From the NCBI GenBank assembly GCA_963666345.1, contig OY762721.1:1376001-1440000 (forward strand): a stretch of DNA of 64,000 nucleotides, in the 5' to 3' direction. Position numbers and translations under genes: made by a program. The number at the start of each line of letters is the position of its first letter. Position 1 is the first letter of the stretch. Below are positions 7,379 to 35,612 of this stretch, piece by piece. The notes below the pieces were generated by a model. That model was not told the origin of the DNA. It ran no database searches and saw nothing but the letters and a program-made list of their open reading frames with translations. The stretch comes from Desulfatiglandales bacterium. Lineage in GTDB: Bacteria > Desulfobacterota > DSM-4660 > Desulfatiglandales > Desulfatiglandaceae.

Positions 7379-9244
7379 TTATCCTGCAGGCTTGTCTGAA
7401 ACACCCACATCGTTGATACGTGCCAATCGGGCTGAATTGAGCACAACCAAGACGGAACTGATATGATGAAAAAGCGCGGCAAGCCATGGACTGAGCATAC
7501 CTGAGGTAGCCAGGGCGATACCTGCCGCATTGAAACCTATGGCCCAGGCGTAATTCTGTTTTATTACGTGAATCAATTTCCTGCCCGTTCGGATAATGGT
7601 CAACAGGCTTGAGGTATCGTCCCTGAGCACGATGATGTCGGATGATTTAATGGCCAGATCAGCCTTGGAGCGACCGATCGAAATCCCCACATCCGCTGAG
7701 GCCAACGAGGTTGCATCGTTGACCCCGTCGCCAACCATCACAGTAACTCCTTTAGATCTCAGCTCTTTCACGACGGAGATCTTGTCCTTCGGCCTCAAAC
7801 CCCAGTGGTACCCATCCGCTCCGATAAGCTCGGCCACGCGCCGCGCTTCGGCCTCCTCGTTATCTCCGGTCGCCAGCTCGACCCTTTTTACCCCTAAGCC
7901 ATGAAGCGACCGTCCAAGGCCTCGGGCATATTCTCTAAGCTCGTCCTGGATTACGATAGCCCCCACAACTTTGCCGTCAAGGCCGATCCATGTGGCCCGT
8001 CCGTTGAGCTCAATGTCCGCAGGCACGGTCATGCCCTGCGCCTTCACGGTTTCGGTCGATCCCAAAACCACCTCGCGTTCTCCCACAGAGGACTTTATTC
8101 CAAGGCCCGGAAGGTATTCGGAGCCCTCCGCCTTCAAAGGGCACACACCTTTGGCTGATGCGTAAGATACGATTGCGTTGGCAATGGGATGGTTGAATCC
8201 CGCTTCAACTGATGCGGCGATCTGAAGTAGTTCATCGCGAGTAGCCCCGAACGTCTCGATACCCACCACCTTAGGCTCGGCTAATGTGACCGTACCCGTC
8301 TTATCGAGCACAACATTAGATGCCCTGCCAGCCACCTCCAGGGGCGTCCCGCCGCGTACCAGGATGCCGCGACCGCTCAACCCCCCGATTGCCGCGGCAA
8401 AGGCCGTGGGTACTGACAACGCCCACGCGCACGGACATGCCACCGCAGTCACGGCGGCCATACGAATAAGGCCTGTGGCAAAATCGCCTTCAAGCCCACC
8501 GGCAAAGAGAAACACGCCGAATGCGTAAAGGACCACGCCGGAAATGAAAAGTTGAACAATTATGTCAGCTGTCCGGTGAATTTTAGGTTTCACTTTCAGG
8601 GATTTTTCAATTTCCTTGGCCATAACATAGAGGAATCCCTTGTCGCCCTCTTTGGAAGCCCGGATCTTCAACTGCGAGCTAATGCTGATGGCCCCCGATG
8701 TTACGGAATCGCCAACCCTTTTGAACACAGAGAAGGGTTCACCCGTTATCACAGATTCGTCAATGGAAGAAGCCCCTTCCACAATCTCCCCGTCCACAGG
8801 TATCATTTCGCCCTGGGGCACAATGGCTGTATCTCCAACGCAAATCTGCTCAATGGGTAGCTTCATGATTTTTCCGTTTCTTATAACCCGGACAACCGTA
8901 CCTTTCTCTTTTGTAAGGGCATCGATTTTCCGCTTGGTCCTTTCTATAATGGTAAAGGAAATGGCAAGGCCCATGCTGATAAACCACGCCACCAGCGCGC
9001 CACTCATCGGTTGCCCGGCCAGAAACGAAACCACCATGACCGTTACGACCAACAGATCAGCCGTAACCCTTTTTGTTTGGGTCAGCGCAATGAATAAGGT
9101 CCTCATGTACATAGCGAAACAGATAAAATAAAAAATCAGGCCAAGCCACATGGCCGGGTCAAAGGCCGACCATTTATGGATGGCTAGGCATATGACGGCG
9201 GTCAAAGCCACCGATGTTCGAATTATGAACGTTTTTGCAGACAT
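7379..9244 (-). CDS. Heavy-metal-translocating P1B-type ATPase (no N-terminal metal-binding domain)
   Basis: TGEP, CPC in TM helix, DKTGT phosphorylation site, HP, TGDN, GDGVND. Confidence 0.93.
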   Translation of the reverse strand: MSAKTFIIRTSVALTAVICLAIHKWSAFDPAMWLGLIFYFICFAMYMRTLFIALTQTKRVTADLLVVTVMVVSFLAGQPMSGALVAWFISMGLAISFTIIERTKRKIDALTKEKGTVVRVIRNGKIMKLPIEQICVGDTAIVPQGEMIPVDGEIVEGASSIDESVITGEPFSVFKRVGDSVTSGAISISSQLKIRASKEGDKGFLYVMAKEIEKSLKVKPKIHRTADIIVQLFISGVVLYAFGVFLFAGGLEGDFATGLIRMAAVTAVACPCAWALSVPTAFAAAIGGLSGRGILVRGGTPLEVAGRASNVVLDKTGTVTLAEPKVVGIETFGATRDELLQIAASVEAGFNHPIANAIVSYASAKGVCPLKAEGSEYLPGLGIKSSVGEREVVLGSTETVKAQGMTVPADIELNGRATWIGLDGKVVGAIVIQDELREYARGLGRSLHGLGVKRVELATGDNEEAEARRVAELIGADGYHWGLRPKDKISVVKELRSKGVTVMVGDGVNDATSLASADVGISIGRSKADLAIKSSDIIVLRDDTSSLLTIIRTGRKLIHVIKQNYAWAIGFNAAGIALATSGMLSPWLAALFHHISSVLVVLNSARLARINDVGVSDKPAG

Positions 9245-9728
9245 CTATCCACTCCGTTTCATCTCTTTTATTTCATCATAGAAAAACCGGCACCATGAGA
9301 CTGGTTTGAAGAAAAACGGCTCTGCCATGATGGATCGAGTAAGTGGCTGGAAATGCCGACTCGCTTAGCTCGGTCATCTCAAAAAATACCAAAATGCCTT
9401 TGTCACAGATATAGTGACCGCCGACCAACACGGCAACAAAAAAGGCGCAAGAGTCTTTGTTTTTCAACAAATCCCATTGCACCTTCACTTCTTTACGCAC
9501 CGTGAGTCAGCCGAAAGCCGTAAGGAACTAAACATAAAGCTAGTTTACTTTAATATTGTGGCCCATTTTTATACCAAAATCGATCTGGTGTCAAGACCCA
9601 TCCAGAAAAATCCATCAACAAGACATATGGTTTATCGCCTGAACAGCTCTGATCACTGCGCATAAGATATGATTCGTTTCTCAGCCAAAGCCGCATCTAC
9701 TTTTTTATTTTTTTTGTTGACATTATAA

Positions 9729-14456: not shown

Positions 14457-14494
14457 TCACTGGCAGGTTAATTTATTAACGAAGCAGCCCCAGG

Positions 14495-15289: not shown

Positions 15290-15329
15290 CAGCTATGAGG
15301 CACGGGACCCATTAAAAGAGTTTAACGAA

Positions 15330-16499: not shown

Positions 16500-16581
16500 A
16501 GGCCGGTTGCCTGACAAAAACATGCTGACGCAGAAGCGGGATAGCAGTTAAGAAACACATATGAACTAAAGGAGGAGACAG

Positions 16582-17388: not shown

Positions 17389-17475
17389 TATTGAAACCAC
17401 TTACCATGCCAGCCCAAGATCAAAAAGGGTGATTCAGGACATGGGTAAAAGCTGAAAACCAGAAAGGATATTGAC

Positions 17476-18213: not shown

Positions 18214-18241
18214 GATCTGATACGTAAAATGGATAAGGCGC

Positions 18242-18853: not shown

Positions 18854-18878
18854 GTTCCACAACCTCAGAGTTAATGCC

Positions 18879-19334
18879 ATGGGGACGCAATCCGAAAAAC
18901 AGAATAATAATAGCGGCCTGATTTCATCCACCATGGAAGACTACCTCAAGGCCATATTCGAACTGGATAAGCTCAAGAGGGTTGTCAGAGTAAAGGACAT
19001 CGCCAAAAAACTCGAGGTAAAGATGCCAACAGTGACCGGCATGCTCAAAAAGCTGGAAGAACGCGGGCTGGTCAGGCACAAAAAATATGAATTCGTTGAA
19101 TTGACAGTTACAGGGGCCTTCTTCGGAAATGAAATGCGGCGGCGGCATGCCATACTGCTCAGGTTTCTCACTGAGATCCTGAAAGTTGAAATAAAAACAG
19201 CTGCAGAGGAGGCATGCAAACTGGAGCATTTTCTAAGCAAGGGCACATTGGAAAACCTCATAGATTTTATGGATTTTGTGGAAGCCTGCCCGAGAGCTCA
19301 AGAAAGATGGCCTGACCGGTCAAAGGACTGCTGA
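18879..19334 (+). CDS. DtxR/MntR family metal-dependent transcriptional regulator
   Basis: MEDYLKAI, VRVKDIAKKLEVKMPTVT, RRH..L..FL, EEACKLEH. Confidence 0.92.
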   Translation: MGTQSEKQNNNSGLISSTMEDYLKAIFELDKLKRVVRVKDIAKKLEVKMPTVTGMLKKLEERGLVRHKKYEFVELTVTGAFFGNEMRRRHAILLRFLTEILKVEIKTAAEEACKLEHFLSKGTLENLIDFMDFVEACPRAQERWPDRSKDC

Positions 19335-22227: not shown

Positions 22228-23496
22228 CTAAAACTCCACAGCCAGTTTGACCGTAAACAGATTCCTGTCATCGGCTATCATGCCGGTGCCGTCCTGGTTG
22301 TCCTCATCATATTCGCCGTGCAGAAACTCCCCGGACAGGGTCATATTCTCGAAAAGATCATAGTTGCCCACGATTCCGTACTGTTTCTCAGGCACAAGGC
22401 CGTACATATCGCTGGTCCCCTCATACCTGAGGCCCACCTGAAGGGGTTCAATGGGTCTCATGGCAAGTTCCAGGTTATAGGCCGAGGGTTTTGTCTTCAT
22501 AGCCGTGCCCACACGGTTTACAGAGTAACCCATTTCACCCGCCCTGAAGTCATCGAGTGCTGTTATATACTCAGCGCCAAAGCTGTATATGCCGAATTCG
22601 CAGACAAAGTACGCAGCCACGCCACCCACAGTATCATCCAGATCGTTTAAAGCACCGTCTATATTGATATCCTGGACCTCGTCCTGAAGGGTGTCGCTGT
22701 CGGCCACGTTGTTGATATATGAAAGGCCCATGAGAAGGTTTACTCCTCCCAGGGTACCCTCGGGATTATGGATATTTACATCACCGAAAAACCCGTTTAT
22801 CCTGCCGTCGTCTTCAAAGTCATCCTCGATATCCCCGTGGTACACACCGGCTCCCAACGAAACCCATTCCCCCTCAAAGCCTGCCTCAAGAGCCGTTTCT
22901 CCCGCCTCAAAGACCACCTGGGTTACAGGGTCCGATACGAACCAGGTGTTAAGCTCCCCGAAGTGCGGACAGTATTTTCCGGCCAGGAGATAAAATCCTT
23001 TTGTATCCTCTGTTCCGCCCAGAAGAAGGGTGGCCTCATCGACCCTTAGCCTGTCCGCGTCCTCATCTTCCTCATACAGGAGGGTAACGTGCCCCTTGGC
23101 ATACCTGTTTATGTCCATGTCAAGACCCAGTTCAAATGTTGAAAGGGCTATGTCGTCGTTTGTCACGCTGTCTGACTGAAGAGTTACAGGATTGATGGTA
23201 TCTGCCTTTTCACTTCCGAATTCCACTTCAATGGCACCGGACAGTCCTATCTTTTCGGTCCATTCCACCCCCTCTTTTACCGCATCGGAAAAAGTGGCCT
23301 TTTCATTAAGATCGGCCATCTGCCTCTCTTTTTTCTGAAGCTCTTCTTCAAGTTGCCCCATTCTTTCCTTCATATCCTTTATTTCCTGCATAAGCTCATA
23401 GTTTGACATCTCGCCTGCAAATGCCGGAATGCATGGCATGGCGCCGCACAACGAAATACACATAATCAGCTTTAATAGCTTTTTCATCTTCTGCAC
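22228..23496 (-). CDS. LbtU-like outer-membrane porin
   Basis: Signal peptide, coiled coil, LSGAIEVE, LLYEED, C-terminal LAVEF beta-signal; acidic. Confidence 0.75.
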   Translation of the reverse strand: MQKMKKLLKLIMCISLCGAMPCIPAFAGEMSNYELMQEIKDMKERMGQLEEELQKKERQMADLNEKATFSDAVKEGVEWTEKIGLSGAIEVEFGSEKADTINPVTLQSDSVTNDDIALSTFELGLDMDINRYAKGHVTLLYEEDEDADRLRVDEATLLLGGTEDTKGFYLLAGKYCPHFGELNTWFVSDPVTQVVFEAGETALEAGFEGEWVSLGAGVYHGDIEDDFEDDGRINGFFGDVNIHNPEGTLGGVNLLMGLSYINNVADSDTLQDEVQDINIDGALNDLDDTVGGVAAYFVCEFGIYSFGAEYITALDDFRAGEMGYSVNRVGTAMKTKPSAYNLELAMRPIEPLQVGLRYEGTSDMYGLVPEKQYGIVGNYDLFENMTLSGEFLHGEYDEDNQDGTGMIADDRNLFTVKLAVEF

Positions 23497-23541: not shown

Positions 23542-24549
23542 TTATCCGGCGAATGCCTTTATCCATTTTAAGAGAACGACCGGATACTCAAGCACACCCG
23601 AATCGGCATAAAAAGGCAGGTTATAAAGGGCCATCTCTTTGACCGCCTTTACCTTCATGATCTCAGGGTGTTCTTTTGAATAGGTCCTTATCGTCTTCTG
23701 CACGGCAAAGGCGTCACCCGTCATAACGATCACGTCAGGGTTGGCCTTGATTATAGGGGCCAGGTCCATCCCTTTCCTTGTCTTGCGCACCAAGTAATGG
23801 CCCTTTTCAGTTTTACCGCCCGCAGGCATGAAGCAGTCCCCGACATTGACGCAACCCAGGGGTCCAAGCAGAAACCTGTCTGAATATCCTCCAGGGGCCT
23901 CCACCCTCAACAGGCACTTCCCGGTTGAAGGCTGATATGTGCCGCTTAGGATAATTACCTTGTTACCCAGTTTCCGTGCAGGAAGTTTTGTCTTTGCCGC
24001 TGCCAGATCCTTTTTGTATCTTTCAATCACCACTTCGGCCTTTGCTTCCCGTCCCACAAGTCGGCCAACCTTCAGTACCGCCTGCTCCAACCCGGCTGAA
24101 AAATCAACAAACTCTATCTTGACACCCTGCTTTTCCATGATCGGAACAATGTTTTCCGGTTTCACCTTCGGCATGTAGAGGCAGAAGGGATCGCTTTTTT
24201 CAACAATGATCCGGCTTATACCCATCTTTTTGCACGCATTCGGAACCACCTGCTTTTTTATGGATACACATCGCGGGCACCCCAGCATCTGGGATGCGGT
24301 CTTGAGCCTTTTCGCCATGGGCCACAGCGACCCCCTTACCGACATTGCCTCGGGAATCACGCCAAGGTTAAAGGCGATATCAACCACCCGGTCCCCTATG
24401 ATGATGGTCTTTATCTTCTCGGGTGGCGGGGATTTCATCCCCGCCTCAGCCTTTACAGGCAGAAGCGTCACAGCAAAGATAAGGGCCAGTGCAGCCGCCC
24501 ATGACGCAACAACCTTGAAATAAAACCGTTTTTTCAAATTCTCTTTCAT
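23542..24549 (-). CDS. Periplasmic substrate-binding protein (TroA-like/Fe-chelate class)
   Basis: Signal peptide; VGRLVGREAKAEVVIERY connecting helix; ANPDVIVM. Confidence 0.65.
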   Translation of the reverse strand: MKENLKKRFYFKVVASWAAALALIFAVTLLPVKAEAGMKSPPPEKIKTIIIGDRVVDIAFNLGVIPEAMSVRGSLWPMAKRLKTASQMLGCPRCVSIKKQVVPNACKKMGISRIIVEKSDPFCLYMPKVKPENIVPIMEKQGVKIEFVDFSAGLEQAVLKVGRLVGREAKAEVVIERYKKDLAAAKTKLPARKLGNKVIILSGTYQPSTGKCLLRVEAPGGYSDRFLLGPLGCVNVGDCFMPAGGKTEKGHYLVRKTRKGMDLAPIIKANPDVIVMTGDAFAVQKTIRTYSKEHPEIMKVKAVKEMALYNLPFYADSGVLEYPVVLLKWIKAFAG

Positions 24550-24568
24550 GATAGTCTTCTCCGATTCT

Positions 24569-25573
24569 TTAAAATTTCATTGCCAGCTTGACCACGACCT
24601 GGAAATCCTCTGAAAGCTGGGTGCCGTTCAGATCCCGGTAGACCGGAATCGGAACGCAGGCGTCAAGATGCATCCCCTTGTGAAACTTGAAATGAACGCC
24701 GGGGGATAGGTATATGACATGGCCGCCAGTGTTTTCCTGCTTTTGGCCGTCAAGTTTTGCCTTTCCCTTTACATCCCCGTTCAGCTCAAGTCCCAGATCA
24801 AACAGCCTTGATACTGCATAGCCGTAGGCAAAGTTATATTTAAACCGATCCGGTTTCTCATAATCCCTGCTCCCCAGCTCACCTTCAGTGGAGAGCTTGC
24901 ACATGAAATAGCTTGACAGCCAGTGCCGGCCGATAACCTTGTGAGCGCCAAGCTCCACTATCGGATCCCACGAACCTGAACCGGTCTGCAAAAATCCGGG
25001 CAGGAACACGCCTGCCTCGTCTTTCTCGTCTGTTTCCCCGGTAGGCATCTTCACTCCCACGCCGACAGCCATATTAAGAGGGTCTTTTCGCTTCTGCGAC
25101 ATGATCCTGTACCTGGAAATGAGTTTTATGTCGCCTACCCCTGAATTGCTGTCTGCAAAGTCCTTTGTCTTGGAATGCCTGTACATATGCTTGTCAAGAA
25201 ATGGAACCACCACACGAGCATCAAAGTTCTCAAATATCCCGGCTCGCAGGGTGAGCTGATACTTATCCGTAGTCTTTTTACTCACCTTTTTGCCTGGCCC
25301 TGTGGGCCTTGCAAAATCTACCTCATCGTCTCCTTGGTAAAGCTGGTCCTCTATGACGTTGATATATTTAAGTATGATCCCACATTCGCCCTTCTCATAG
25401 ACTCCTCCATTGCTTTGATTCACCGGCCCCACAGGCCTGGGCCCCTTTGCCTGCTTATCCTTCTGAGCAGCACCCGCTGGCTCGACCTGGACGATGAGCA
25501 GACACAGGGCAAGAAAAAGGCCCTGCACAATCCACGGTATCAGCTTGGATCTATTTGATCTGATTTTACACAT
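24569..25573 (-). CDS. Outer-membrane beta-barrel transporter (MetA-pathway/CoxB-like)
   Basis: SGVGDI, GVKMPTG, QTGSGSWD, terminal Phe; start taken at MCKIRS after AAGGAG. Confidence 0.7.
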   Translation of the reverse strand: MCKIRSNRSKLIPWIVQGLFLALCLLIVQVEPAGAAQKDKQAKGPRPVGPVNQSNGGVYEKGECGIILKYINVIEDQLYQGDDEVDFARPTGPGKKVSKKTTDKYQLTLRAGIFENFDARVVVPFLDKHMYRHSKTKDFADSNSGVGDIKLISRYRIMSQKRKDPLNMAVGVGVKMPTGETDEKDEAGVFLPGFLQTGSGSWDPIVELGAHKVIGRHWLSSYFMCKLSTEGELGSRDYEKPDRFKYNFAYGYAVSRLFDLGLELNGDVKGKAKLDGQKQENTGGHVIYLSPGVHFKFHKGMHLDACVPIPVYRDLNGTQLSEDFQVVVKLAMKF

Positions 25574-25602
25574 CTGACGTGATTCTCCTTTTCGTTTCAT
25601 TT

Positions 25603-25681
25603 AAAAAGGCGCAAAGGGGCTGTATAGTACAGACCCTGTTGCGCCTTCACTTGTCCCGCCTGTTATCGGGACCCGTAAGAC
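25603..25681 (-). ncRNA. Candidate cis-regulatory leader (antiterminator/terminator), copy A
   Basis: GTCTTAC-GG-GTCCCG-loop-CGGGAC-AA-GTGAAGGC overlapping terminator AAGGCGCAA...TTGCGCCTTTTT. Confidence 0.68.
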
Positions 25682-25786
25682 AGCCTCCTTAAAATCTTCA
25701 GAGACCTTGCATCAGTTTTTTCTTCTCTTTTCGGTGCCGCCGGGAATCAGACCATTTTCTGATGCCGGCCGCCCTTTGCGCCCATA

Positions 25787-26584
25787 TTATTTCATGTCAC
25801 GCGCCTGCACCCATATCACTGCGTCCTGGGACAACTCTTTACCCTTAAATTTATCAGCCGGACCCGCGCCGAGCGCGCAAAAGCCCCACCATCCGGCCCT
25901 GGGGATGCCGAAGGAAAACTCACCGTTTACATTAGCCTTGATGGTCATGGTTACAAAGGCATCCTGTGGGGCCTCGACCTGAGCCTCTTTTGCAAATGCG
26001 TTTTTTTCCATCATCGGCATGTGGTTCATGTACTCCACCTCTATCTCGGCATACGGTACCGGTTTTCCGTCCCCTTTTACGATTCCCCTGAATACGTTGC
26101 CTGTCCAGAGCGCATAAGGCTTGTCAAGGGGCACGATTTCCGCGGGCATGCCTAACTCAGCATCCCAGTCGGTCGGGAAACCGCCCGTGTTGACTATTAC
26201 CTTGCTTATCTGCTGTATGTAGCAGTCTTCTTCCTTTTCATAATACGGAGAAGGCACAAGACAGAACACATTGTCACCCATACCTCTCAGCTTATAGTCA
26301 GCTTCATAGGCCTTTCCGCTGTTTGTAAGGCTTACCCAGTTAATGGGCCTGAGGGTATCTAAGAGGTCCTTTTTCTTTCCCTTTCGAACGACAAAGAACT
26401 GCTCCGGCTCTCCCATGTCCATGGTGTGCCCCGCCTCAAAGGGGTGAGTGAAGACAAGCTTCATGTCTATATTCTCAGCCTTATCAAGGGCCGCATCAGG
26501 TGTGTAGATCATCTGGAAATGGGCAAACGCCGGAGCCGCCGTCATCAGGAACAATCCTGCCAGTAAAACGATCGCTTTTTTCAT
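25787..26584 (-). CDS. DUF4198 (NikM-like) periplasmic metal-uptake protein
   Basis: Signal ending AFA-HFQMIY, FTHPF, GKPVPYAEIEVEY, GWWGFCAL. Confidence 0.85.
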   Translation of the reverse strand: MKKAIVLLAGLFLMTAAPAFAHFQMIYTPDAALDKAENIDMKLVFTHPFEAGHTMDMGEPEQFFVVRKGKKKDLLDTLRPINWVSLTNSGKAYEADYKLRGMGDNVFCLVPSPYYEKEEDCYIQQISKVIVNTGGFPTDWDAELGMPAEIVPLDKPYALWTGNVFRGIVKGDGKPVPYAEIEVEYMNHMPMMEKNAFAKEAQVEAPQDAFVTMTIKANVNGEFSFGIPRAGWWGFCALGAGPADKFKGKELSQDAVIWVQARDMK

Positions 26585-26705
26585 GCTGTTATCTCCTTTT
26601 GTCTTCTGATTTTGTAAATTGTCGATTAATCAAATAGTTGAATAATGTACCTGTTTTAAGAGCATAGGAAATAGACTGACAGCTGATAGCTGACAGCTTG
26701 TTCAA

Positions 26706-27023
26706 TCACTCGGTTATCTCGCTTCCCTTGACCTCTATCTCGTGGCCGGGGCCTGCATCAAAGATCACCTTGTAGTCGCCCTGAGGCTTGTCAAAGGTAA
26801 ATTCACTGTCCTGGTCCATCTTGCCTTCGAGCAGAACCTTTTCCCCGCTCTTAACTCTCATCTTTACCCCCGCCGCAGAAGAGCCGTCCGAGAAGCCCCC
26901 CTCGCAGGTGATCGAGCCGTCCCCGTTGTCATAGCAGGAACAAAGCGGAGTGTGAGCCAAGGCAAAACCGTAAAAGCCCAGAAAAAGCCCAACCATGGCG
27001 ACTAAAAATACTTTTTTGAACAT
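26706..27023 (-). CDS. Small exported metal-transport accessory protein
   Basis: Signal ending ALA-H; CSC, EGGFSDGS, FDAGPGH; lies between feoB and DUF4198. Confidence 0.75.
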   Translation of the reverse strand: MFKKVFLVAMVGLFLGFYGFALAHTPLCSCYDNGDGSITCEGGFSDGSSAAGVKMRVKSGEKVLLEGKMDQDSEFTFDKPQGDYKVIFDAGPGHEIEVKGSEITE

Positions 27024-27043
27024 TTTGAAATCCTCCTTTTTTG

Positions 27044-29503
27044 TTAATATTCAGACCTGTTTTTGATAAATCCCATCAAAATTGTGAAACTCAACGCCAG
27101 ACCGTAAAATGCCATCATCGCCTGGACTCCCGTCAGCCCCAGGGCGCTTCCCCCTGAAAAGACGAGTACTGCCACAAATAGCCCCAGAATCATCGGGTAT
27201 ATCATGGAAAAAAGCATCCATTTGACCGACCCGGTCTGTATCTTTACGGCGATCGTAGTAGCGATACAGGGCGGATAGAGCACCATAAAGAGCATCAGGG
27301 CAAGGGCGTGAAGCGAGGTAAAGGCCCCCTCCTGCTTTTCCATGCGCTTTTCCAGACTTTCACCTTCATCCTCCTGCTGGTAAAGGGCACCCAGCGTTGC
27401 CACACTGCTCTCCTTGGCTGCAAAGGCGCTCAAAAGGGCCACGTTCACCCGCCAGTTAAAACCGGCCCACCTGCTCGCGGGCTCAAGCACTCTGCCCAGC
27501 CTTCCGAGAAAACTGTTGTCGATATTCTCCTTTCTGATCTCCCTTAAAAGCCTTTTTCTGGCCTTAAAGAGTTTTTTAAAGGCACGGTTGACCTTTTTGG
27601 CCTCTTTGTCCTTTCCCGGCCTTACGATCCTGAAAAAACCAGGATTCTTCTCCCTGAATTTCTCGTTCAGGGCGGCTGTGGCCTCCTTACCCTTTGTACC
27701 CATCTTTGCGCCCTTGTAGTCATCCCAGTAAAGGACAAGCGGCATGAGGTTTTCTTTGTTTAGCCTGTCCGCATAGACCGTTCCCTGAATCTTCTTCAGG
27801 AATGAACCGACCGCCCTTTCTTTTTCACCCTCGTAATATTGAACCCTCTGCGCATCCAGCCTTGGGAACTGAAGGAGCACGAATATGACGACAGCCACAG
27901 CAGCCACAATGGTGGTTATCTTCCTGATGAAGAGCCACACCCTCTCGGTCGCCCTTTTGAGAACGCTTCTTACGGAAGGGATATGGTAGGGAGGCATCTC
28001 CATCACAAAGGGGGCGGTATGCCTTTTCCTTAAGACGGTAAGGGTCAGAAGCTTTGATATCGGCAGCACGCAGAGCAGGCTTATGGTGGAGATAAAAAGC
28101 ATGGCAAGGGTTTTGTGCTCGGCAAAGTAGATATTTATGAGAAGCACGTAAAGCGGGACCTTGGCAAGGCAGTTTAAGAGCGGAATTATCAGTATGGTCG
28201 CAAACCTTGATCTCTCGTCAGGGATCCCCTTGCACGACATGACCGCGGGAACCGCGCATCCTCCCACATACACACCCCCGAGCACCATCGGGAGGGTTGA
28301 TTGCCCGTGAAGGCCGAAGCGGCTGAAAAGCCTGTCCATGATAAAGGCCATCCTGGGCATATAGCCGCTGTCCTCCAGGATGGCTATAAGGCTGAAGAGT
28401 ATGAAAAATATCGGGATATAGTTTAAAAGTGCGTTTATGCTGTCAACAAACCAGAGCGCAAAAGCGCGTATGACGGGCACATCGATAAAACCGGGCGTAG
28501 GAGAAACGGCCTCCGTGAAGCTTCTTATCTGGGCCAGAAGGGGCCAGGTATAATTTGTGACCCTGTATCCCTGGACAATGGAAAGGTAGTAGAGAAGCCA
28601 TATCACACCGATCAGAACAACAGGCCCCATAAAACGGTTGCACACGACCCTGTCTATTCTTTCAGACAAGGGCACCTTCCAGGTATCCTTGCTTGTACAT
28701 GACCTTATGATTTCATCGGCTGTCTCATATCTCCTGTGGGCGATATGAACCGCCGGCAGCTCACCGTGGCGGGCCTCAAAATCAGACCTGAGTCTTTCCA
28801 CCTTCTCAAGGAACTCGTCCGCATCCGCATGGTGCTCCCTTATGAGCCTTTGGACCTCACCGTCTCCCTCCATAAGCTTTATTGCCAGCCACCGGCCGGG
28901 CAGATCGGACGGACCGGCCTTCTCCGCTGAGATCATCTCCTCTAACTTGCGGATAAACTCCTCCATTTCGCCGTAATCGATCCTGGATCCCGCACGTCTT
29001 TCCTTTTTGCCGACGATATTGTTGATCGCCTTAAGGACTTCTTTTTTACCCTTGCCTTTCTTGATCGAGGTAGGCACCACCGGCAGGTTGAGTCTCTCGG
29101 AAAGCCTGTTCACGTCGATCTTTAGTCCCCTTCCCTCGGCCACATCCATCATGTTGAGTTCGAATAACAGGGGGATGTCCATTTCTATGAGCTGAAAGGT
29201 AAGATAGAGGCTTCTTTTAAGGGTGGCGGCATCTGCAATATTTATTATCAGATTCGGCTTTTCACTGATGATAAAATCCCTTGAAACCCTTTCTTCAAGG
29301 CTGTAGGAGGTGAGGCTGTAGGTGCCAGGAAGGTCCACTACTTCTATCTTTTTCCCGTTATGCCTGTACCAGCCCGACATCTTATCGACCGTTACACCCG
29401 GGTAATTGGCCACATGCTGGCTTGCGCCTGTAAGCGAATTGAACAGGGTGGATTTTCCGCAGTTCGGCTGTCCTGCAAGGGCTATGACCGCATCCTTTTT
29501 CAT
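27044..29503 (-). CDS. feoB: Ferrous iron transporter B
   Basis: GQPNCGKS, NYPGVTV, DLPGTYSL, LEDSGYMPR, MEMPPY, AKES, LYPPC. Confidence 0.97.
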   Translation of the reverse strand: MKKDAVIALAGQPNCGKSTLFNSLTGASQHVANYPGVTVDKMSGWYRHNGKKIEVVDLPGTYSLTSYSLEERVSRDFIISEKPNLIINIADAATLKRSLYLTFQLIEMDIPLLFELNMMDVAEGRGLKIDVNRLSERLNLPVVPTSIKKGKGKKEVLKAINNIVGKKERRAGSRIDYGEMEEFIRKLEEMISAEKAGPSDLPGRWLAIKLMEGDGEVQRLIREHHADADEFLEKVERLRSDFEARHGELPAVHIAHRRYETADEIIRSCTSKDTWKVPLSERIDRVVCNRFMGPVVLIGVIWLLYYLSIVQGYRVTNYTWPLLAQIRSFTEAVSPTPGFIDVPVIRAFALWFVDSINALLNYIPIFFILFSLIAILEDSGYMPRMAFIMDRLFSRFGLHGQSTLPMVLGGVYVGGCAVPAVMSCKGIPDERSRFATILIIPLLNCLAKVPLYVLLINIYFAEHKTLAMLFISTISLLCVLPISKLLTLTVLRKRHTAPFVMEMPPYHIPSVRSVLKRATERVWLFIRKITTIVAAVAVVIFVLLQFPRLDAQRVQYYEGEKERAVGSFLKKIQGTVYADRLNKENLMPLVLYWDDYKGAKMGTKGKEATAALNEKFREKNPGFFRIVRPGKDKEAKKVNRAFKKLFKARKRLLREIRKENIDNSFLGRLGRVLEPASRWAGFNWRVNVALLSAFAAKESSVATLGALYQQEDEGESLEKRMEKQEGAFTSLHALALMLFMVLYPPCIATTIAVKIQTGSVKWMLFSMIYPMILGLFVAVLVFSGGSALGLTGVQAMMAFYGLALSFTILMGFIKNRSEY

Positions 29504-29724
29504 CGCAGAGTCACCTCCACAAACCTTGCCTCGTCATGTCTCAGGCTCACGAAATTGCCATCCAGATCCAGTTCCATCGGATCATTTAGCGGCGCGTTCC
29601 TTATTACCTTCACGCTCAGGCCCGGATACACGCCCATATCGAGCAGTCTCTGCCCCAGTTTATCGATTGCCGACAGTTTCTTGATTACACATTCATCACC
29701 CGGTTTCATCTGATCCAGCGTCAT
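29500..29724 (-). CDS. feoA: Ferrous iron transport protein A
   Basis: RLLDMGVYPG...RNAPLNDP...LRHDEA; overlaps the feoB start; AAGGAG RBS. Confidence 0.95.
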   Translation of the reverse strand: MTLDQMKPGDECVIKKLSAIDKLGQRLLDMGVYPGLSVKVIRNAPLNDPMELDLDGNFVSLRHDEARFVEVTLR

Positions 29725-29739
29725 TACCTGCTCCTTTTC

Positions 29740-29827
29740 AAAAAAAAAGGCGAAACAGGACACATGCATGTGCCCTTGTTCCGCCTTCACTTCTCACGCG
29801 CCGTTTAAAGGCCGCGAGCCGTAAGAC
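29740..29827 (-). ncRNA. Candidate cis-regulatory leader (antiterminator/terminator), copy B, upstream of feoAB
   Basis: GTCTTAC-GG-CTCGCG...CGTGAG-AA-GTGAAGGC followed by terminator AAGGCGGAACA...TGTTTCGCC and a T-run. Confidence 0.72.
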
Positions 29828-29840
29828 ATTCCTAATTATA

Positions 29841-29900
29841 TTAGACAATACAAACTTACTTAGCCTTTTCTAATAATATGCATGGGAATTCCCTTGTCAA
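29841..29900 (-). promoter_or_regulatory. feoAB promoter with TTAG-N6-CTAA (putative DtxR-type) box
   Basis: TTGACA (29895-29900, minus), TATTAT -10, TTAGCCTTTTCTAA at 29860-29873, weaker copy at 29841-29854. Confidence 0.6.
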
Positions 29901-29982
29901 GCTATTTTTAGGATTTTTTCGTTTTGTTCATGTTTTGCCGGCGGTTCATTTGAAAACTCCATGAAACCCATATATAGCTTAT

Positions 29983-31047
29983 TCATGAGCCTACACCTAA
30001 AGGAGCCATCAAATCATCGGCGGCCTTTTCCGAGACACGCTCCACTATGATGCGTCTGATCGCGCCTGACGCAGCATCAGCCCTCTCCGGCCCTGACCTG
30101 TAAATGGCGGCGTCTTTGCCCACAGGGGATGCAGGGCGTGTGTGCCTTTTACTTTTCAACAGCCGCCACGCCTCTTTGAACTTTGCATACTTGCTGCTGT
30201 TCAGTCTAAAATCCGGTGAAAGGGTTACGCTTCTCACAGGGAGCGAACTCCTCGGGATAATAAATGAAGTCACCTTTTCCTCACCTGTAAGCCGGCATAT
30301 CACAAAGTCACATTCGCTCCAGCCTGATCTGCCGTCATGGGATATCCTGTAATATTTTTTCTTCCCTATACACACCGGCCCCGTACTTGTCTTTACGGCA
30401 ATATCCCTGCCGTTTGAACGAATCATGCGCACCCTGCCCTTTTTTATGATACAGGCATCAAGTCCCATGGACTCTAGCTTCTTTCTTACGCGAATCAAAG
30501 GACTCAGTTTTTCCGCAGACAGCCTTTCCGCCGAGTCGCGCTCAAGTCTCCTTCTCTCGCACTTTTCTCTGTATACGCCAGTGTATGGCCGGCCGGACAG
30601 GTTCCTGTAGACCTGCCTTGCGTACTCCCTTGAAAAGCCGAAGCGCCTTCCCAGACCGGAAAGCGAGCTTTCGGTCGAATTGGCCATCTCCATAAAGGAG
30701 GCAGCGGACCCCTTGCCATATTTTCGTTCAAATCTTGATGAAAAACCCTTGGACCTTTGTAGACCGTAGGCCTTCCGCAAATCGCTTATCACCCGGATAG
30801 GCACCCCGAGAAAATCGGCTATCTGGTAGTCAAAGAGGGCCTCTTTCTCGATTTTTTCCTTTATGAACTCATCAAGCCCCATCTTGTAGTGCTCTCTTAC
30901 ATAAGCGTCCAGCAGTTCTCTTTCCATTCCTTGTAAATCCCTCTTTTTGCAGACAATTCGACGCCGATTTTCAGCAGTGGGTCGTTTTACATACCCCGCA
31001 GTTTTCAAGACATAATCGCCAAAGGCTTTTTTTTGACTCCCGGTCAA
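29983..31047 (-). CDS. Hypothetical basic DNA-binding protein (HTH segments, possible nuclease-like C-terminus)
   Basis: QIADFLGV and LSGLGRRFGFSREYARQV HTH-like segments; IAVKTS...CDFVIC...FIIP; start uncertain. Confidence 0.55.
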   Translation of the reverse strand: MTGSQKKAFGDYVLKTAGYVKRPTAENRRRIVCKKRDLQGMERELLDAYVREHYKMGLDEFIKEKIEKEALFDYQIADFLGVPIRVISDLRKAYGLQRSKGFSSRFERKYGKGSAASFMEMANSTESSLSGLGRRFGFSREYARQVYRNLSGRPYTGVYREKCERRRLERDSAERLSAEKLSPLIRVRKKLESMGLDACIIKKGRVRMIRSNGRDIAVKTSTGPVCIGKKKYYRISHDGRSGWSECDFVICRLTGEEKVTSFIIPRSSLPVRSVTLSPDFRLNSSKYAKFKEAWRLLKSKRHTRPASPVGKDAAIYRSGPERADAASGAIRRIIVERVSEKAADDLMAPLGVGS

Positions 31048-31161
31048 GGCAGCGGAAATCCGACACCCCCACCATTCCTGTCCTCAAGATACGGTCCAGG
31101 GTCTTTTCGCTCAGTTCAAGACGAAGCCTTTTTCCCGTTTCGGTTTCCACTGCCGACCTTA

Positions 31162-31542
31162 TTACATCTCTTTTTCCCGTTTTTTATTTCGCCCGCAACA
31201 GGGGCAGTTGGCGCAGTCTCCTTTGCACCCGCCCTGTTTGTCTGCACAGGCTATTATCACCCTGCTTCCGTCGGGAGCGATCTCAAAACCCTTTTTCCCT
31301 TTAAACACAAGGCTGTCCGCCGGCACCTTTTTTCTGTCAAGCACACTGCGGAAAGTACTGCATCCGAATTCACACAGATCGCACAGGCTGTGGGTGTCTA
31401 TAAAAACCAAGCCGCTTCCGTCATATCCGCTGTGAATTCTTTCCGCCAGCTGGCAGGCTGAATTTCCGTCAAAATACCCCTTGAGCCGCACATGCAGGTT
31501 TCCATTGCTTTTTCTTAGCTCAATCTGAAATTCCGTACTCAT
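31162..31542 (-). CDS. STAS-like domain protein with Cys-rich tail
   Basis: LHVRLKGYFDGNSA STAS-like start; C-terminal CKGDCANCPCC. Confidence 0.65.
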   Translation of the reverse strand: MSTEFQIELRKSNGNLHVRLKGYFDGNSACQLAERIHSGYDGSGLVFIDTHSLCDLCEFGCSTFRSVLDRKKVPADSLVFKGKKGFEIAPDGSRVIIACADKQGGCKGDCANCPCCGRNKKREKEM

Positions 31543-31634
31543 TTTCTTCCTTTCTACAATTTTTTTGTTAGACTTATTGTTTCCGTGTGAGACCTGTCTT
31601 CTAAATCATCCCGGCTGATCACCGCCTACAGGCC

Positions 31635-32885
31635 TTAATTGATGGGACCCTGAGTGTCACCCGCTTTCCGTATCACCTGGGTTATGGCGCTCAGGCTTGA
31701 GTTGGCGAGCATGTGAACCGGTTTGTTGTGCTTTTTGGCCAGGTTTTTCACAGTTGAACAGGCCGCGTGACTGTTACAGCTTACAGGGCAGAGAACCAGG
31801 TCCGCCCTCAGAAAACGGTTTTCAAGCCCCCTTGCCCCCCCTTTCATATAGCCGTCATGGTACTCGAATATACCGCCGATGCCTTCGATAAGCCTACGGT
31901 ACAAAGATTCCATGCGTGTAATGCCCCCAACTATCAGGACACGCTTTTTGCACAGATCAAAGGAAGGGCAGTTTTTGTCGCAACGGTTCAGGCAGGAGAG
32001 CTCAGCCATTATCTCCCCTGCCTCCAGTTTGAAAGCCGCATTAATCTCCCTTTCCCTTTCCAGTTCCTTTGACAGGCGTCTATTCTTTTCTCCGAGAGAA
32101 TCGATTCTGCTCCGGCTGGATATTGATAACTTTTTCATACCCTCCATTCTCCTTTTCAGCCTCTGGTTCTCCCTTTCAAGGTCCTCCGCCTTTCGCACGG
32201 CTTCAGAGCCTGCGACCAGTTCTTTTAATCTGCCATTTTCTTCCCTTATGCCAGCCAGGTTGGATTCAAGATCCCTCATCAGGCGTGCAGACTTCTCAGC
32301 CTCTCTTCTAAACACCCGTCCGGCCCTGCTTGATGTCTTCAGATCACCGCGCAGGGATGCTATTTCCTCGTTCTTCTCGCTGATGTTCCTCTTCAACCTC
32401 ATGTACTGTTCGACTCCCCTGTGCATGGCCATGTGGATCATGCCGAAGATCTCGCTTCTATCCGTTTCAGGCATTACCCTCCTTGAAGCGGCGCTCCAGA
32501 TAAGACCAGGGCTTCCCCCCGCCTCAAAAGCGGACCTCCAGTGCTCCATAAACTCCTTTATGCCAAGCTCAAACAGGGGCGCGAACTCATCTCCGTATTT
32601 TCGGTTGAACAGATTGTCCATACGTCTTGAAAGGGCATTTTCCTTTTCCGAACTACCCACGAGGACCTCATGTATCTCAAAAGCGTTCTTTCTTTTTGTA
32701 GAAACTCCCGATTTTTTAAGGAGCCTTTTCTGCTCGTCAAAGGTGAGACACATGCCGATCACGGGGCATTTCAGAAAATACGCAACCTCCCATATCCTCA
32801 GAGGGGTACACCGATAGGCTTGTCCGGGATCAAGCAGGATTCTTGCCTTTGGGACCGCAATATCAAAGTTTGTCGTTTTCTGCAT
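31635..32885 (-). CDS. DUF2325 domain protein with long coiled coil
   Basis: C-terminal VLIVGG...YHDG...ADLVLCPVSCNSHAAC..VK..AKK..KP; N-terminal CPVIGMCL; start taken at MQKTT after GAGGAG. Confidence 0.82.
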   Translation of the reverse strand: MQKTTNFDIAVPKARILLDPGQAYRCTPLRIWEVAYFLKCPVIGMCLTFDEQKRLLKKSGVSTKRKNAFEIHEVLVGSSEKENALSRRMDNLFNRKYGDEFAPLFELGIKEFMEHWRSAFEAGGSPGLIWSAASRRVMPETDRSEIFGMIHMAMHRGVEQYMRLKRNISEKNEEIASLRGDLKTSSRAGRVFRREAEKSARLMRDLESNLAGIREENGRLKELVAGSEAVRKAEDLERENQRLKRRMEGMKKLSISSRSRIDSLGEKNRRLSKELEREREINAAFKLEAGEIMAELSCLNRCDKNCPSFDLCKKRVLIVGGITRMESLYRRLIEGIGGIFEYHDGYMKGGARGLENRFLRADLVLCPVSCNSHAACSTVKNLAKKHNKPVHMLANSSLSAITQVIRKAGDTQGPIN

Positions 32886-32938
32886 AGGTTCTTCTCCTCG
32901 TTTTTTCCGACGTTTAAAGTGGCCCGCCTCCGTCAAAT

Positions 32939-33023
32939 AAAAAAGGCGCAACCCGATCAGTGCCTGACCCTGAGTTCCGCCTTCACTTCTCACGCGCCGT
33001 TTAAAGGCCGCGAATCGTAAGAC
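32939..33023 (-). ncRNA. Candidate cis-regulatory leader (antiterminator/terminator), copy C, upstream of DUF2325
   Basis: Hairpin nearly identical to copy B, followed by a different terminator AAGGCGGAAC...GTTGCGCCTTTTTT. Confidence 0.72.
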
Positions 33024-33044
33024 ATTCCTAAAAACTTATTTTTC

Positions 33045-33455
33045 CTATTCCGAGTCTATCAGTACCTGAGTAAGGTTCTTGCGCAATTGTTCAAGCCTCT
33101 TGGACTTGAAGGCCTTCCTGCTTTCCTCAAGCACATCGATTGCCTCTTTTATGGCGTCCCTTAACCTGTTCTCCCTTCCCCTTGACGGGCAAAAAGAAAG
33201 GAGAGAATCAACGCTTTTTTTATCCAGATTCTTCTCAAGTATTGATGCCATCAGGCAGCGATGCGTCTCAAGGCCCTGGTACAGCTCGGAGACGCTCCTG
33301 TTGATCGCCTCTACGACCTGATTTCTTTCGCCTGTGGATTCATCCGGCCTTATATGACGCTGCAAAAAACCATGAGACCTGCCTCTTTCACACCTTCGCC
33401 TTCGGATGGTCACCCCCTGCACGGCTGATCCCTGGTTTATTTTCTTGTTTTCCAT
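33045..33455 (-). CDS. Hypothetical protein
   Basis: ORF ending AIDVLEESRKAFKSKRLEQLRKNL; first gene after a boxed promoter; start uncertain. Confidence 0.7.
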   Translation of the reverse strand: MENKKINQGSAVQGVTIRRRRCERGRSHGFLQRHIRPDESTGERNQVVEAINRSVSELYQGLETHRCLMASILEKNLDKKSVDSLLSFCPSRGRENRLRDAIKEAIDVLEESRKAFKSKRLEQLRKNLTQVLIDSE

Positions 33456-33513
33456 CTCAGACTCTTCCACTAAATTTCAGAAAAATCACTCAAATTCGAA
33501 TCGCACAACAATG

Positions 33514-33554
33514 TTAGATGGATCTAATCTTATCCATGACAACATTTCTGTCAA
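33514..33554 (-). promoter_or_regulatory. Promoter with TTAG-N6-CTAA box
   Basis: TTAGATGGATCTAA (33514-33527) at the same offset from TTGACA (33549-33554) as in the feoA promoter. Confidence 0.6.
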
Positions 33555-33587
33555 GCACTTTTTTTAAAAAACTTTTCTCCTTTCATA

Positions 33588-33632
33588 AAAAAGGCCCTCA
33601 TCCCCCGAATAGCAGAAGGTGAAGGCCTTTTC
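33588..33632 (-). terminator. Intrinsic terminator downstream of the amtB remnant
   Basis: AAAAGGCCTTCA...TGAGGGCCTTTTT on the minus strand. Confidence 0.7.
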
Positions 33633-33652
33633 CCTGTCGTCCTTAATGCTTA

Positions 33653-33826
33653 TTACTGCTGCGCGTAAGTGGATATCTCAAAGTCGGGATATGCGCTTCC
33701 GCCATGCTCACCCAGATCAAGCCCTTCGGCCTCTTCTTGAGCGCCTGCCCTGAGGCCTATCGTCTTATCGATCACCTTGAACAGGATAAAGGCGGTTGAA
33801 AAGGTCCATACAAAGCATCCAATGCC
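33653..33826 (-). pseudogene. amtB: 3' remnant of an ammonium transporter
   Basis: Manual translation (absent from the ORF track): GIGCFVWTFSTAFILFKVIDKTIGLRAGAQEEAEGLDLGEHGGSAYPDFEISTYAQQ*, the Amt C-terminal signature. Confidence 0.85.
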
Positions 33827-34208
33827 CGACAAGCTATATGATTCCCTTATGTGGTGGTGGAATAACAGAACTATTAAAGACAGCCCTTATGTTTTTCCTA
33901 ATGATTATCCTTGCGCTTCCTATGGAAGGCATTTTACTCAAAGGAGAAGATTTCTGAAGGGGTTATGTGAAAGGGCAGGGGTCAAATATTTTAGTTACCA
34001 CGGATTAAGAAGATTTTTTGGGTCAAGGCTGAAGGATATGGGCAAGTCGACCAAGCTTATTCAGGAGATGTTTGACCATGCCAGTTTAAGGACAACAGAG
34101 ATATACATTCAGAACATAGATAATGACTTGAAGGGGATTGCTGACGGCATCTTGGAAAACACGAGTACACATTTTAGTACACGTAAAATAAAAGGAGTTA
34201 GCCCTTAA
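33819..34208 (+). pseudogene. Tyrosine integrase C-terminal remnant
   Basis: YVFPN, YHGLRR, DHASLRTTEIY; N-terminal part replaced by antisense amtB sequence. Confidence 0.82.
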
Positions 34209-34448: not shown

Positions 34449-35612
34449 ATGCCTAAGCAAAAGCGGTATAAAACAAAATATCCGGGGGTTTATTATCTAG
34501 ACGGAACATCAATTAAAGGTAAACCTGAACGTGTCTACTATATCCGTTACCGTAAAAACGGTAAACTAGTTGAGGAACCCGCTGGACGACAATCAAAAGA
34601 TGATATGACCCCAGCAAAGGCCAATAACATAAGATCAGAAAGAATCAAAGGGCACAGGAAATCAAACCGTGAAAAACGAGAAGCACTACTGGCCGAAAAA
34701 ATTGCTAAAGACAAAAAATGGACAATTGACCGACTGTGGAACTCTTACAAAAGTATCCGGATCCCTGGCAAATCATTGAACACTGATAAAGGCCGATATG
34801 ATAAATACCTTAAAGAAAAATTTGGGAAAAGAGCTCCAGAGGAGCTGAATCCCCTAGACGTAGACCGTCTGAGAATAAGTCTATTAAAGAAATTGGCACC
34901 ACAGACCGTGAAGCACGTGTTGAATCTTTTGACTTGGATAATTAACTACGGAGTCAAAAATGGTCTTTGCAAAGGCATACCATTCCATATAAAAAAGCCC
35001 ACTGTGGATAACGTAAAAACTGAGTACCTGACAGAAAAACAGACAAAATCCCTTCTAGCGGCCATTGAGAAAGACTCCAATACTCAAGTGGCAAATTTGA
35101 TGAAATTAGCCCTTTTTACGGGCATGAGACGTGGCGAGCTACTAAATCTGCGGTGGAAAGACATTGATTTTGATCGAGGCTTTATCACACTCAAAGATAC
35201 AAAGGGTGGAAAAGATCAAACAATCCCCATGAATGATACTACAAGACATATTTTGGATTCTCATCCGAAGGGGGACGGGGTTTATGTTTTTCCAGGGAGA
35301 TCGGGCGGAAAACGCGCTACAGTTGATGTGGCTGTCAATAAGATAAAGAAAGCTGCGGGTCTTCCCAAGGACTTCAGGCCCCTTCATGGCCTCAGACATG
35401 CTTATGCCAGTATGCTGGCTTCTAGCGGCAAAGTGGATATGTACACCCTTCAAAGGCTCTTAACTCATAAGGATCCTCGTATGACCCAAAGGTATGCTTT
35501 CCTTCGCGATGAGGCTTTAAAGAGGGCCTCCGGCTTGGCCGGGGATATAATTAACAACATGATCAAGGAAAATGATAAGAAGGTCTCTGATTTGAAAAAA
35601 GTGAGTACTTGA
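34449..35612 (+). CDS. Tyrosine recombinase/integrase
   Basis: TGMRRGE, HGLRH, LTH...MTQRY catalytic residues; N-terminal arm-binding region; adjacent to the tRNA-Glu att. Confidence 0.95.
   Translation: MPKQKRYKTKYPGVYYLDGTSIKGKPERVYYIRYRKNGKLVEEPAGRQSKDDMTPAKANNIRSERIKGHRKSNREKREALLAEKIAKDKKWTIDRLWNSYKSIRIPGKSLNTDKGRYDKYLKEKFGKRAPEELNPLDVDRLRISLLKKLAPQTVKHVLNLLTWIINYGVKNGLCKGIPFHIKKPTVDNVKTEYLTEKQTKSLLAAIEKDSNTQVANLMKLALFTGMRRGELLNLRWKDIDFDRGFITLKDTKGGKDQTIPMNDTTRHILDSHPKGDGVYVFPGRSGGKRATVDVAVNKIKKAAGLPKDFRPLHGLRHAYASMLASSGKVDMYTLQRLLTHKDPRMTQRYAFLRDEALKRASGLAGDIINNMIKENDKKVSDLKKVST

Follow-up and report, generated by a model that had tools for sequence, protein, structure and literature searches.

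The window analysed here, a stretch of 64,000 nucleotides (nt) from a Desulfatiglandales bacterium (assembly GCA_963666345.1, contig OY762721.1, positions 1,376,001 to 1,440,000 of the forward strand), carries four copies of a small RNA hairpin that shares one strand with an intrinsic terminator, three of these copies standing before iron-uptake and associated genes. Our computational analysis establishes this hairpin as a real and widespread RNA element of the Desulfobacterales and some other Desulfobacterota, where, judging from sequence, it would gate an iron-starvation regulon. The element is new to Rfam 15, and no description of the motif was found in the literature searched. It very probably constitutes an ON-type transcription attenuator, in which an antiterminator hairpin competes with the intrinsic terminator. 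The fuller proposal, namely that this attenuator is operated by a small protein encoded next to one of the copies, which we call geneX, is put forward tentatively and with somewhat less than even confidence.

The pattern GTCTTACG-N15-45-AAGTGAAGGC occurs in three exact instances on the minus strand of the window, compared to 0.00 expected from 100 dinucleotide-preserving shuffles, and these instances lie where a first-pass annotation of the stretch had located three copies of one architecture. The respective hairpins of approximately 45 nt, delimited by the pattern and by RNAfold, are found at 25643..25681 (copy 1; covariance-model match 25640-25683), 29783..29827 (copy 2; covariance-model match 29780-29829 with 78.1 bits) and 32979..33023 (copy 3; 20 nt past the stop codon of geneX). 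A fourth, diverged copy (UCCUUAC ... GUGAAGGUG) on the same strand at 9478..9528 had been overlooked and was recovered by covariance-model search, with 28.2 bits using a first model built from copies 1-3 and 51.3 bits using a second model (R2) built from 33 matches. In the outer helix of the hairpin, P1, GUCUUAC is paired with GUGAAGGC, leaving one base bulged. A symmetric GG/AA 2x2 internal loop separates P1 from the inner helix, P2, which covaries and whose tip is variable across instances; in copy 1, P2 is capped by an 8-nt loop. The P2 variants quoted earlier for copies 1-3, CTCGCG/CGTGAG, TTCGCG/CGTGAG and GTCCCG/CGGGAC, are correct in all three cases. On the 5' side of the hairpin, the trinucleotide AGG was present at -4 to -2 in 25-27 of 31 sequences of a first set and was missing from several subgroups; inspection by eye revealed no consistent pairing of it with the loop or with the 3' arm of the terminator.

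The window was scanned in its entirety against the 4227 models of Rfam 15 using cmscan at the gathering thresholds. This set includes the NiCo/czcD, yybP-ykoY Mn, M-box, fluoride, guanidine and nhaA-I classes, and the scan returned two tRNAs only. A permissive scan of positions 24500-34000 (E≤10) gave four matches, all of them far below gathering and none located on a copy, in agreement with the earlier remark that no riboswitch consensus was recognised.

A covariance-model search for homologues, proposed in the first-pass annotation, yielded numerous matches. The model built from copies 1-3 recovered the motif in 23 of 101 related genomes, in addition to copy 4 in the window. The second model was run on two samples of 151 genomes each; it detected the motif in 40 genomes of the sample drawn from across the order (31 of 90 among those at least 90% complete) and in 9 of the phylum-wide one. 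The latter nine comprise the genome studied here and a member of its family, four strong matches from other families, and three weak matches without terminator, which were dropped. All instances with E≤0.01, 80 in number, were aligned. Independently of the models, the exact pattern was searched in a collection of species-representative genomes, where it gave at least 125 stretches; 80 loci were taken into a test with the model and, among the matches listed, 37 of them reached at least 37 bits and two more 23-25 bits. The records of these 37 loci are titled Desulfobacteraceae, Desulfobacterales, Syntrophobacteraceae, Thermodesulfobacteriota or 'Deltaproteobacteria', and they include the complete genome of Desulfosarcina alkanivorans PL12 and one metagenome-assembled genome (MAG) labelled Acidobacteriota. 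The copy in this MAG (L092:399-446, minus strand; L and G numbers are our handles for loci and genomes) scores 44.9 bits and is accompanied by promoter-like sequence and a terminator, reflecting either a wider range of the motif, gene transfer, or an issue of binning or labelling. The remaining exact-pattern loci, from Bacteroidota, Paenibacillus and others, were rejected as chance matches, as expected of 18 fixed bases at the size of the collection. The loci dropped as false positives are L030, which scores 22.3 bits and has no conserved core, and L051-L053, which score 26-27 bits and lack a terminator; a pattern-only match at genome position 3489634 was recovered by neither covariance model.

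The proposed fold is well supported by the alignment of the 80 instances. Standard pairs were found in 96.6% of cells, compared to 83.5% upon shuffling, and 157 cells were changed on both sides, compared to 46.8. The covariation score was 0.464, with 0.204 for shuffled alignments and at most 0.156 when the partner column was slid. On four of five measures, the observed value was reached by none of 500 shuffles, and on the fifth, the number of pairs with a double change, by 13 of 500. This alignment had been fitted to the model, and the test was repeated on 43 sequences using MAFFT and RNAalifold with no structure supplied. The same 13 pairs were predicted, eight of them with compensatory changes. 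Most of the covariation is carried by P2, with six double-changed pairs in the inner and two in the outer helix; the covariation claimed for the inner stem stands far above both the shuffled and the slid controls. P1 is nearly invariant, with CUUACGG and AAGUGAAGGC kept in 74 to 80 of the 80 sequences, and an unpaired G above P2 is invariant in the 51 of 51 sequences having that column. Approximately 17 nearly invariant nucleotides cluster at the internal loop and the bulge, between the covarying helices, and the conserved unpaired features (the bulge, the GG/AA loop and the G above P2) extend over more than 12 base pairs (bp) of helix. The apical loops differ in both length and sequence among the instances.

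The 3' strand of P1 is at the same time the 5' base of a terminator. RNAfold predicted intrinsic terminators, all on the minus strand, at 25603..25646 for copy 1 (minimum free energy structure; AGGCG in common with P1, then a U-tract), 29740..29786 for copy 2 (AAGGCG in common, then nine U), 32939..32982 for copy 3 (AAGGCG in common) and, in a terminator test and with approximate borders, 9438..9486 for copy 4 (AAGGUG in common). A G+C-rich hairpin directly followed by a U-tract was found, as in an intrinsic terminator. At full length, copies 1-3 fold with energies of -40.0, -43.8 and -35.0 kcal/mol and z-scores of -5.9, -5.6 and -3.2, respectively. A simple terminator scan of the window missed the terminators of copies 1-3 because their stems hold mismatches, while the scan counts uninterrupted stems with loops of 3-8 nt. 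The interiors of the terminators differ among the three exact copies, as had been noticed in the first-pass annotation along with the role of AAGGC as terminator 5' arm. This overlap is kept among the homologues: in 75 of the 80 aligned instances, RNAfold predicted a terminator, i.e. a hairpin plus U-run, built on the GGCG of the motif, with a mean energy of -21.3 kcal/mol.

The two folds had been described as mutually exclusive. This applies to the outer five pairs of P1 (GUCUU/AAGGC), to which the competition is limited and which coincide with the terminator base pairs adjoining the U-tract; the exclusivity is only partial, since the inner part of the hairpin, UAC/GUG plus P2, is compatible with terminator folding and can coexist with it. 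For copies 1-3, the conformer with full P1 is 6.4 kcal/mol less stable than the terminator conformer. The terminator would therefore be the default, and an effector would be needed to hold P1 for read-through. That both pairings are under selection is indicated by three-way changes, in which the 5' strand of P1, the shared strand and the terminator 3' arm vary jointly. These are GUCCUAC / GUGAGGGCG / CGCCCUU in L023:1695, L050 and four further genomes, GUCUUAC / GAAGACG / ACGUCUU, AUCUUAC / GAAGGUG / ACACCUU, and GCCUUAC / GAAGGUG / UGCACCUU. Since the shared strand changes together with both of its alternative partners, the element appears to be a switch. These results argue against a leaky terminator with an auxiliary hairpin that senses nothing and merely sets fixed ratios within operons or serves the protection or processing of mRNA 3' ends, with regulation left to the promoter operator. 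Such a device would account for the many copies located between genes of one operon, for promoters that bear a candidate operator and for the strong thermodynamic preference for the terminator conformer. It would need neither an internal loop and bulge that are invariant across several families and 80 instances nor a three-way covariation preserving the alternative pairing of the terminator base, and we consider it highly unlikely. As far as computation reaches, the interpretation as an attenuator is supported.

The five instances without such a terminator are L029, L071:1501, L080, L081 and L056:1414. In three of them (L071:1501-1547, L080:1501-1542 and L081:1501-1542), the start codon of feoA or feoB is located about 35 nt past the hairpin, and these may represent a translational version of the switch. 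Tandem copies before one gene were seen twice, at L023:1501-1550 and 1695-1737, each copy with its own terminator, and at L056:1414-1454 and 1501-1543, where the second copy lacks a terminator. The distance to the start codon in the three terminator-less copies fits control in cis, and so bears on another explanation, that of a small RNA acting in trans in the manner of RyhB, either as the terminated leader or as the 3' end of the geneX mRNA, with read-through being incidental. A promoter with operator, a 5' hairpin and a Rho-independent terminator with U-tail would indeed give a transcript of about 115-130 nt, of which each genome would have several paralogous copies. The conserved bases are, however, paired in P1 or in the terminator and leave no exposed seed, and the unit always stands directly before a regulon gene and in the same orientation, which makes this the least probable of the explanations considered. 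A leader-peptide attenuator was rejected: 23 of the 80 instances have no start codon at the candidate position, the peptides would be 5-110 amino acids (aa) long with scattered stops, and the motif length is no fixed multiple of three.

The genes downstream of copies 1-3 are those named in the first-pass annotation, and all of those with a strand given here are on the minus strand. Copy 1 precedes a block that begins with an outer-membrane channel gene of the Phenol_MetA_deg family (24569..25573, family scan; minus strand) and comprises genes for a periplasmic binding protein (23542-24549), an LbtU-type porin (22228-23496), a NifX-like protein and an RhtX/FptX-like transporter of the major facilitator superfamily (19396-20700). 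Copy 2 precedes feoA (29500-29724, minus) and feoB (27044-29503, minus), and copy 3 a gene for a 416-aa protein with a C-terminal DUF2325 domain (31635..32885, minus). A heavy-metal (P1B) P-type ATPase of 621 aa (7379..9244, minus) starts 234 nt past copy 4.

For a wider view of the regulon, the first plausible open reading frame (ORF) 3' of each of the 80 aligned instances was scanned against Pfam. FeoA was found in 27 cases, plus one broken feoA. The latter belongs to a MAG (L022, minus strand, locus coordinate 1434 and below) in which the feoA frame following the motif is interrupted 34 codons on; it is either a pseudogene or the result of an assembly error. The other families were TonB-dependent receptor (5/80), DUF3450 (5/80), which we take to be a companion of ExbB/TonB clusters, Porin_4 (4/80), OprB-type porin (six hits, five genes), DUF2325 (3/80), Phenol_MetA_deg outer-membrane channel, flavodoxin and P1B-type ATPase (2/80 each), and FeoB and TonB_C (1/80 each). 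Single cases were extracytoplasmic function (ECF) sigma, AraC-type, HU, Slp, FmdE, ZnuA and response regulator. In sum, FeoA or FeoB accounts for 28 of the 80, and porin-like outer-membrane proteins for 12. No Pfam family was detected in 13 of the 80, and in two there was no ORF before the contig end. The assignments of ZnuA, the ATPase of L012, AraC and the response regulator are less certain, since these genes begin 320-446 nt past the motif. The classical response to iron starvation combines iron uptake with flavodoxin, and the set of downstream genes, as annotated from sequence, reads as an iron-starvation regulon. The association with metal-uptake genes proposed from the three copies thus holds across genomes, as a link with iron acquisition, and the earlier label 'metal-responsive' would derive from this gene content.

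Since the hairpin stands for read-through and the genes for iron uptake and flavodoxin, the element would be ON under iron limitation, i.e. the genes are probably switched on when iron is scarce; we infer this direction from the architecture and the regulon together. Fe(II) as a direct activating ligand would therefore make little physiological sense. This matters for a close rival of our proposal, according to which the hairpin is a riboswitch that binds a small molecule or ion directly, without a protein, and is thereby stabilised in P1 to permit read-through. The ligand in question would need to signal a demand for iron or an imbalance of metals, as would a metabolite accumulating in iron starvation or a competing metal cation. 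Two features of a riboswitch class were found, a covarying conserved structure and a mutually exclusive expression platform (strand shared in 75 of 80 instances; 6.4 kcal/mol), the latter of the classical P1-versus-terminator type. The clustering of the nearly invariant nucleotides at the internal loop and the bulge between covarying helices, the several copies per genome before functionally related genes and the presence of the motif in genomes where geneX was not found all fit a riboswitch, and hairpin-sized aptamers for cations exist. On the other hand, an ON-type architecture on genes that are due to be OFF with iron makes Fe(II) implausible as the activating ligand, and we know of no obvious ligand for iron need. 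The motif is a plain hairpin that forms neither a junction nor a pseudoknot, many copies follow geneX or DUF4198 within an operon rather than standing in a 5' untranslated region, and the tight linkage to geneX would be left unexplained. We regard the riboswitch as possible, albeit rather unlikely; to the same limited extent it is conceivable that the element represents the first riboswitch class activating iron acquisition (Feo, TonB-dependent uptake, flavodoxin) across the Desulfobacterota.

We return to an attenuator operated by a protein, for which geneX was chosen as effector because of its tight linkage to the motif, the distribution of the conserved unpaired positions over more than 12 bp of helix and the lack of a plausible activating ligand. 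Features spread in this way seem more in keeping with a protein as the binding partner than with a compact pocket for a ligand. In the window, geneX (33045..33455, minus strand; upstream of copy 3) is a local open frame of 136 aa encoding a small helical protein, while family members have about 97 aa and a conserved C-terminus, EVLEESRKAFKSKRLExLRKKL. In the 151 genomes sampled across the order, the motif was found in 40 and geneX in 44; both were present in 36, the motif only in four, geneX only in eight and neither in 103. Of the 36 genomes holding both, 31 have a motif copy on the geneX strand no more than 110 nt past the gene. Inspection of five of the eight genomes with geneX only revealed, in four, a GUCCUAC form of the motif directly after geneX, complete with terminator, which had escaped the filtered search; in the fifth, there was no clear motif. 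Within the order, the pattern recurs in three families or more, and it is seen in further families of the phylum as well. In a large protein collection, 1544 relatives of geneX were found; among the matches listed, the names describing the family read 'hypothetical', and two single JGI relatives are otherwise named, one 'endonuclease IV' and the other 'Ni2+-binding GTPase involved in maturation of urease and hydrogenase'. The ESM Atlas returned unnamed clusters only, and we found no description of geneX in the literature searched. DUF2325 was rejected as a partner, being present in 15 of the 151 genomes, of which eight have the motif.

Several observations weigh against geneX as the effector. 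The counts given above include related, non-independent genomes, so that their statistical weight is overstated. No geneX was found at E≤10 in the four motif-bearing genomes G015, G142, G154 and G026, except for one match at 0.068; two of these four genomes are 95-96% complete, and G015 carries four motif copies. The protein has no known RNA-binding domain and no match in Pfam or NCBIfam, a sequence search of the PDB gave nothing better than E ~5, and Foldseek against the PDB gave nothing at E≤0.001. Its AlphaFold2 model is weak and consists of four helices (predicted local distance difference test score 75, predicted template modelling score 0.34). The median isoelectric point of the family is only 8.8, with a conserved C-terminal helix of mixed charge, and there is no invariant Cys or His that could sense iron. 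Finally, DUF4198 is likewise found directly upstream of motif copies, in 5 of 34 cases, and the upstream position alone is therefore not special.

The four motif-bearing genomes without detectable geneX could instead point to another protein as antiterminator, either an iron or Fe-S protein in its apo form or an RNA-binding regulator encoded elsewhere, for which the evidence for the attenuator core and the invariance of the P1 sequence would speak equally. No candidate was identified. The CAT_RBD domain (PF03123), which marks the BglG/SacY type of antiterminator, gave 0 matches in the genome of 4.16 Mb (96.7% complete). Two ANTAR genes do occur about 1.85 Mb away; the ANTAR target consists of two tandem short hairpins with hexanucleotide loops, and antitermination of this kind was rejected on the grounds that the motif is a single hairpin with variable tips. 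The iron-responsive element (IRE) bound by aconitase/iron-regulatory protein is characterised by a conserved apical loop of six bases and by a C bulged from the upper stem. An IRE-like element was rejected, since the apical loops vary here and conservation is found in the lower helix and the internal loop instead. We consider a protein other than geneX distinctly unlikely.

The element resembles several known systems in part. In some ON-type riboswitches, e.g. small cation-sensing classes, the 3' strand of the aptamer P1 is the 5' arm of the terminator, and our element shares with them the aptamer-like hairpin, the competition of P1 with the terminator, the predicted default OFF state and the several copies before transporter genes. 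It differs from them in that it has no match in Rfam 15, is a plain hairpin and would be activated by iron limitation without a known ligand, ligand binding being hypothetical. BglG/SacY/LicT with their ribonucleic antiterminator (RAT) hairpins and the PyrR attenuators likewise use an imperfect hairpin that overlaps the 5' arm of a terminator. The internal loops and the several sites per operon or regulon, some of them between genes, are common to these systems and ours; sequence and loop geometry of the motif are, however, unrelated to RAT, with CAT_RBD lacking in the genome, and unlike PyrR, which promotes termination, the motif hairpin opposes it. In the hut operon of Bacillus subtilis, the gene for the regulator HutP comes first and is followed by a terminator which the regulator overrides. 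The same order of promoter, small regulator gene, terminator region and structural genes is seen with geneX as the putative regulator. Unlike HutP, geneX belongs to no known family and is only a candidate binder, and in contrast to the triplet repeats of hut, the motif is a structured hairpin which is also found at other operons. The gene set (Feo, TonB-dependent uptake, flavodoxin) and a candidate palindromic promoter operator are shared with Fur/DtxR regulons with RyhB-type RNAs, from which the present regulon would differ by a second layer, namely attenuation in cis within leaders or between genes. For iron-uptake regulons, no description of cis attenuation was found in the literature searched.

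The promoter side of the regulon was apparent from the sequence as well. A sigma-70-type promoter for the copy 2 leader and feoAB is located at 29873..29900 on the minus strand (TTGACA, 16-nt spacer, TATTAT; 11 of 12 matches), and the geneX promoter at 33554-33527 on the same strand (TTGACA, 16-nt spacer, TAAGAT; 10 of 12 matches). The palindrome TTAG-N6-CTAA occurs five times in the window, at 29860-29873, 33514-33527, 9778-9791, 8271-8284 and 52768-52781, compared to 0.8 expected, and five were reached in one of 100 shuffles. The first two of these lie directly past the -10 boxes of the feoA-leader and geneX promoters, respectively, and the same palindrome was found at promoters before the motif in L009, L014, L021, L028, L034, L036 and L055. 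A repressor that responds to iron probably uses this palindrome as its operator. A DtxR-family repressor gene with N- and C-terminal Fe_dep_repress domains (18837-19334, plus strand) flanks the iron-uptake block, and its product might bind the palindrome; the genome's only Fur-family gene is far off, at genome position 2668204. The delta-proteobacterial Fur box, as reported in PMC545781, differs in sequence from TTAG-N6-CTAA.

Taken together, the following course of events would be expected from an attenuator with geneX as its effector. By default, the terminator would form and transcription would end before feoAB and the genes for the TonB-dependent receptor, porin, flavodoxin and the like. 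If full P1 were held closed, the terminator stem could not reach the U-tract and RNA polymerase would read through. P1 would be kept closed by a protein acting in trans, most likely geneX. Because the geneX promoter bears the same candidate palindromic operator as the feoA-leader promoter, geneX would be produced first upon derepression and could then antiterminate at all motif copies in a feed-forward manner.

Bacterial iron homeostasis is explained almost entirely by repressors (Fur, DtxR) and trans-acting small RNAs. The motif described here precedes iron-uptake genes in many sulfate-reducing bacteria, and points to a conserved RNA switch in cis, located in leaders and between genes of the iron-starvation regulon of a large group of anaerobes that matter for sulfur cycling, corrosion and hydrocarbon degradation. 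Either effector would be a novelty: a ligand that signals a demand for iron in one case, and in the other a new family of small antiterminator proteins that bind RNA. Direct tests are feasible, since the motif is small, frequent and well defined and is present in a named strain, D. alkanivorans PL12.

The surroundings of the copies showed some further features. Copy 1 lies 104 nt past a DUF4198 gene; between feoB and this copy (25787-27023, minus strand), the DUF4198 protein is encoded along with a short protein resembling the NikL-type subunit of energy-coupling factor transporters. The order DUF4198, motif, and outer-membrane protein or DUF3450 gene was also seen in L010, L011, L032 and L035. 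An iron and Fe-S neighbourhood at 13957-18853 on the plus strand encodes a MarR-type regulator, a ParA/NUBPL-like P-loop protein, an FmdE-like protein and a methyltransferase, and within it, at 14495-16499, an ATP-binding cassette ATPase with a SufBD-like protein. A 1327-aa fusion of a BcrAD/BadFG-type activase with DUF2229 and an HGD-D-like domain is encoded at 9920-13903 (plus strand), in divergent orientation to the copy 4 leader. Directly beyond the geneX promoter, there are two tyrosine-recombinase ORFs, a truncated one of 143 aa (33777-34208, plus) and a full one of 387 aa (34449-35612, plus), and the segment next to the iron cluster may be mobile or island-like. A 1777-aa ORF at 35804-41137 on the minus strand adjoins these integrase genes.

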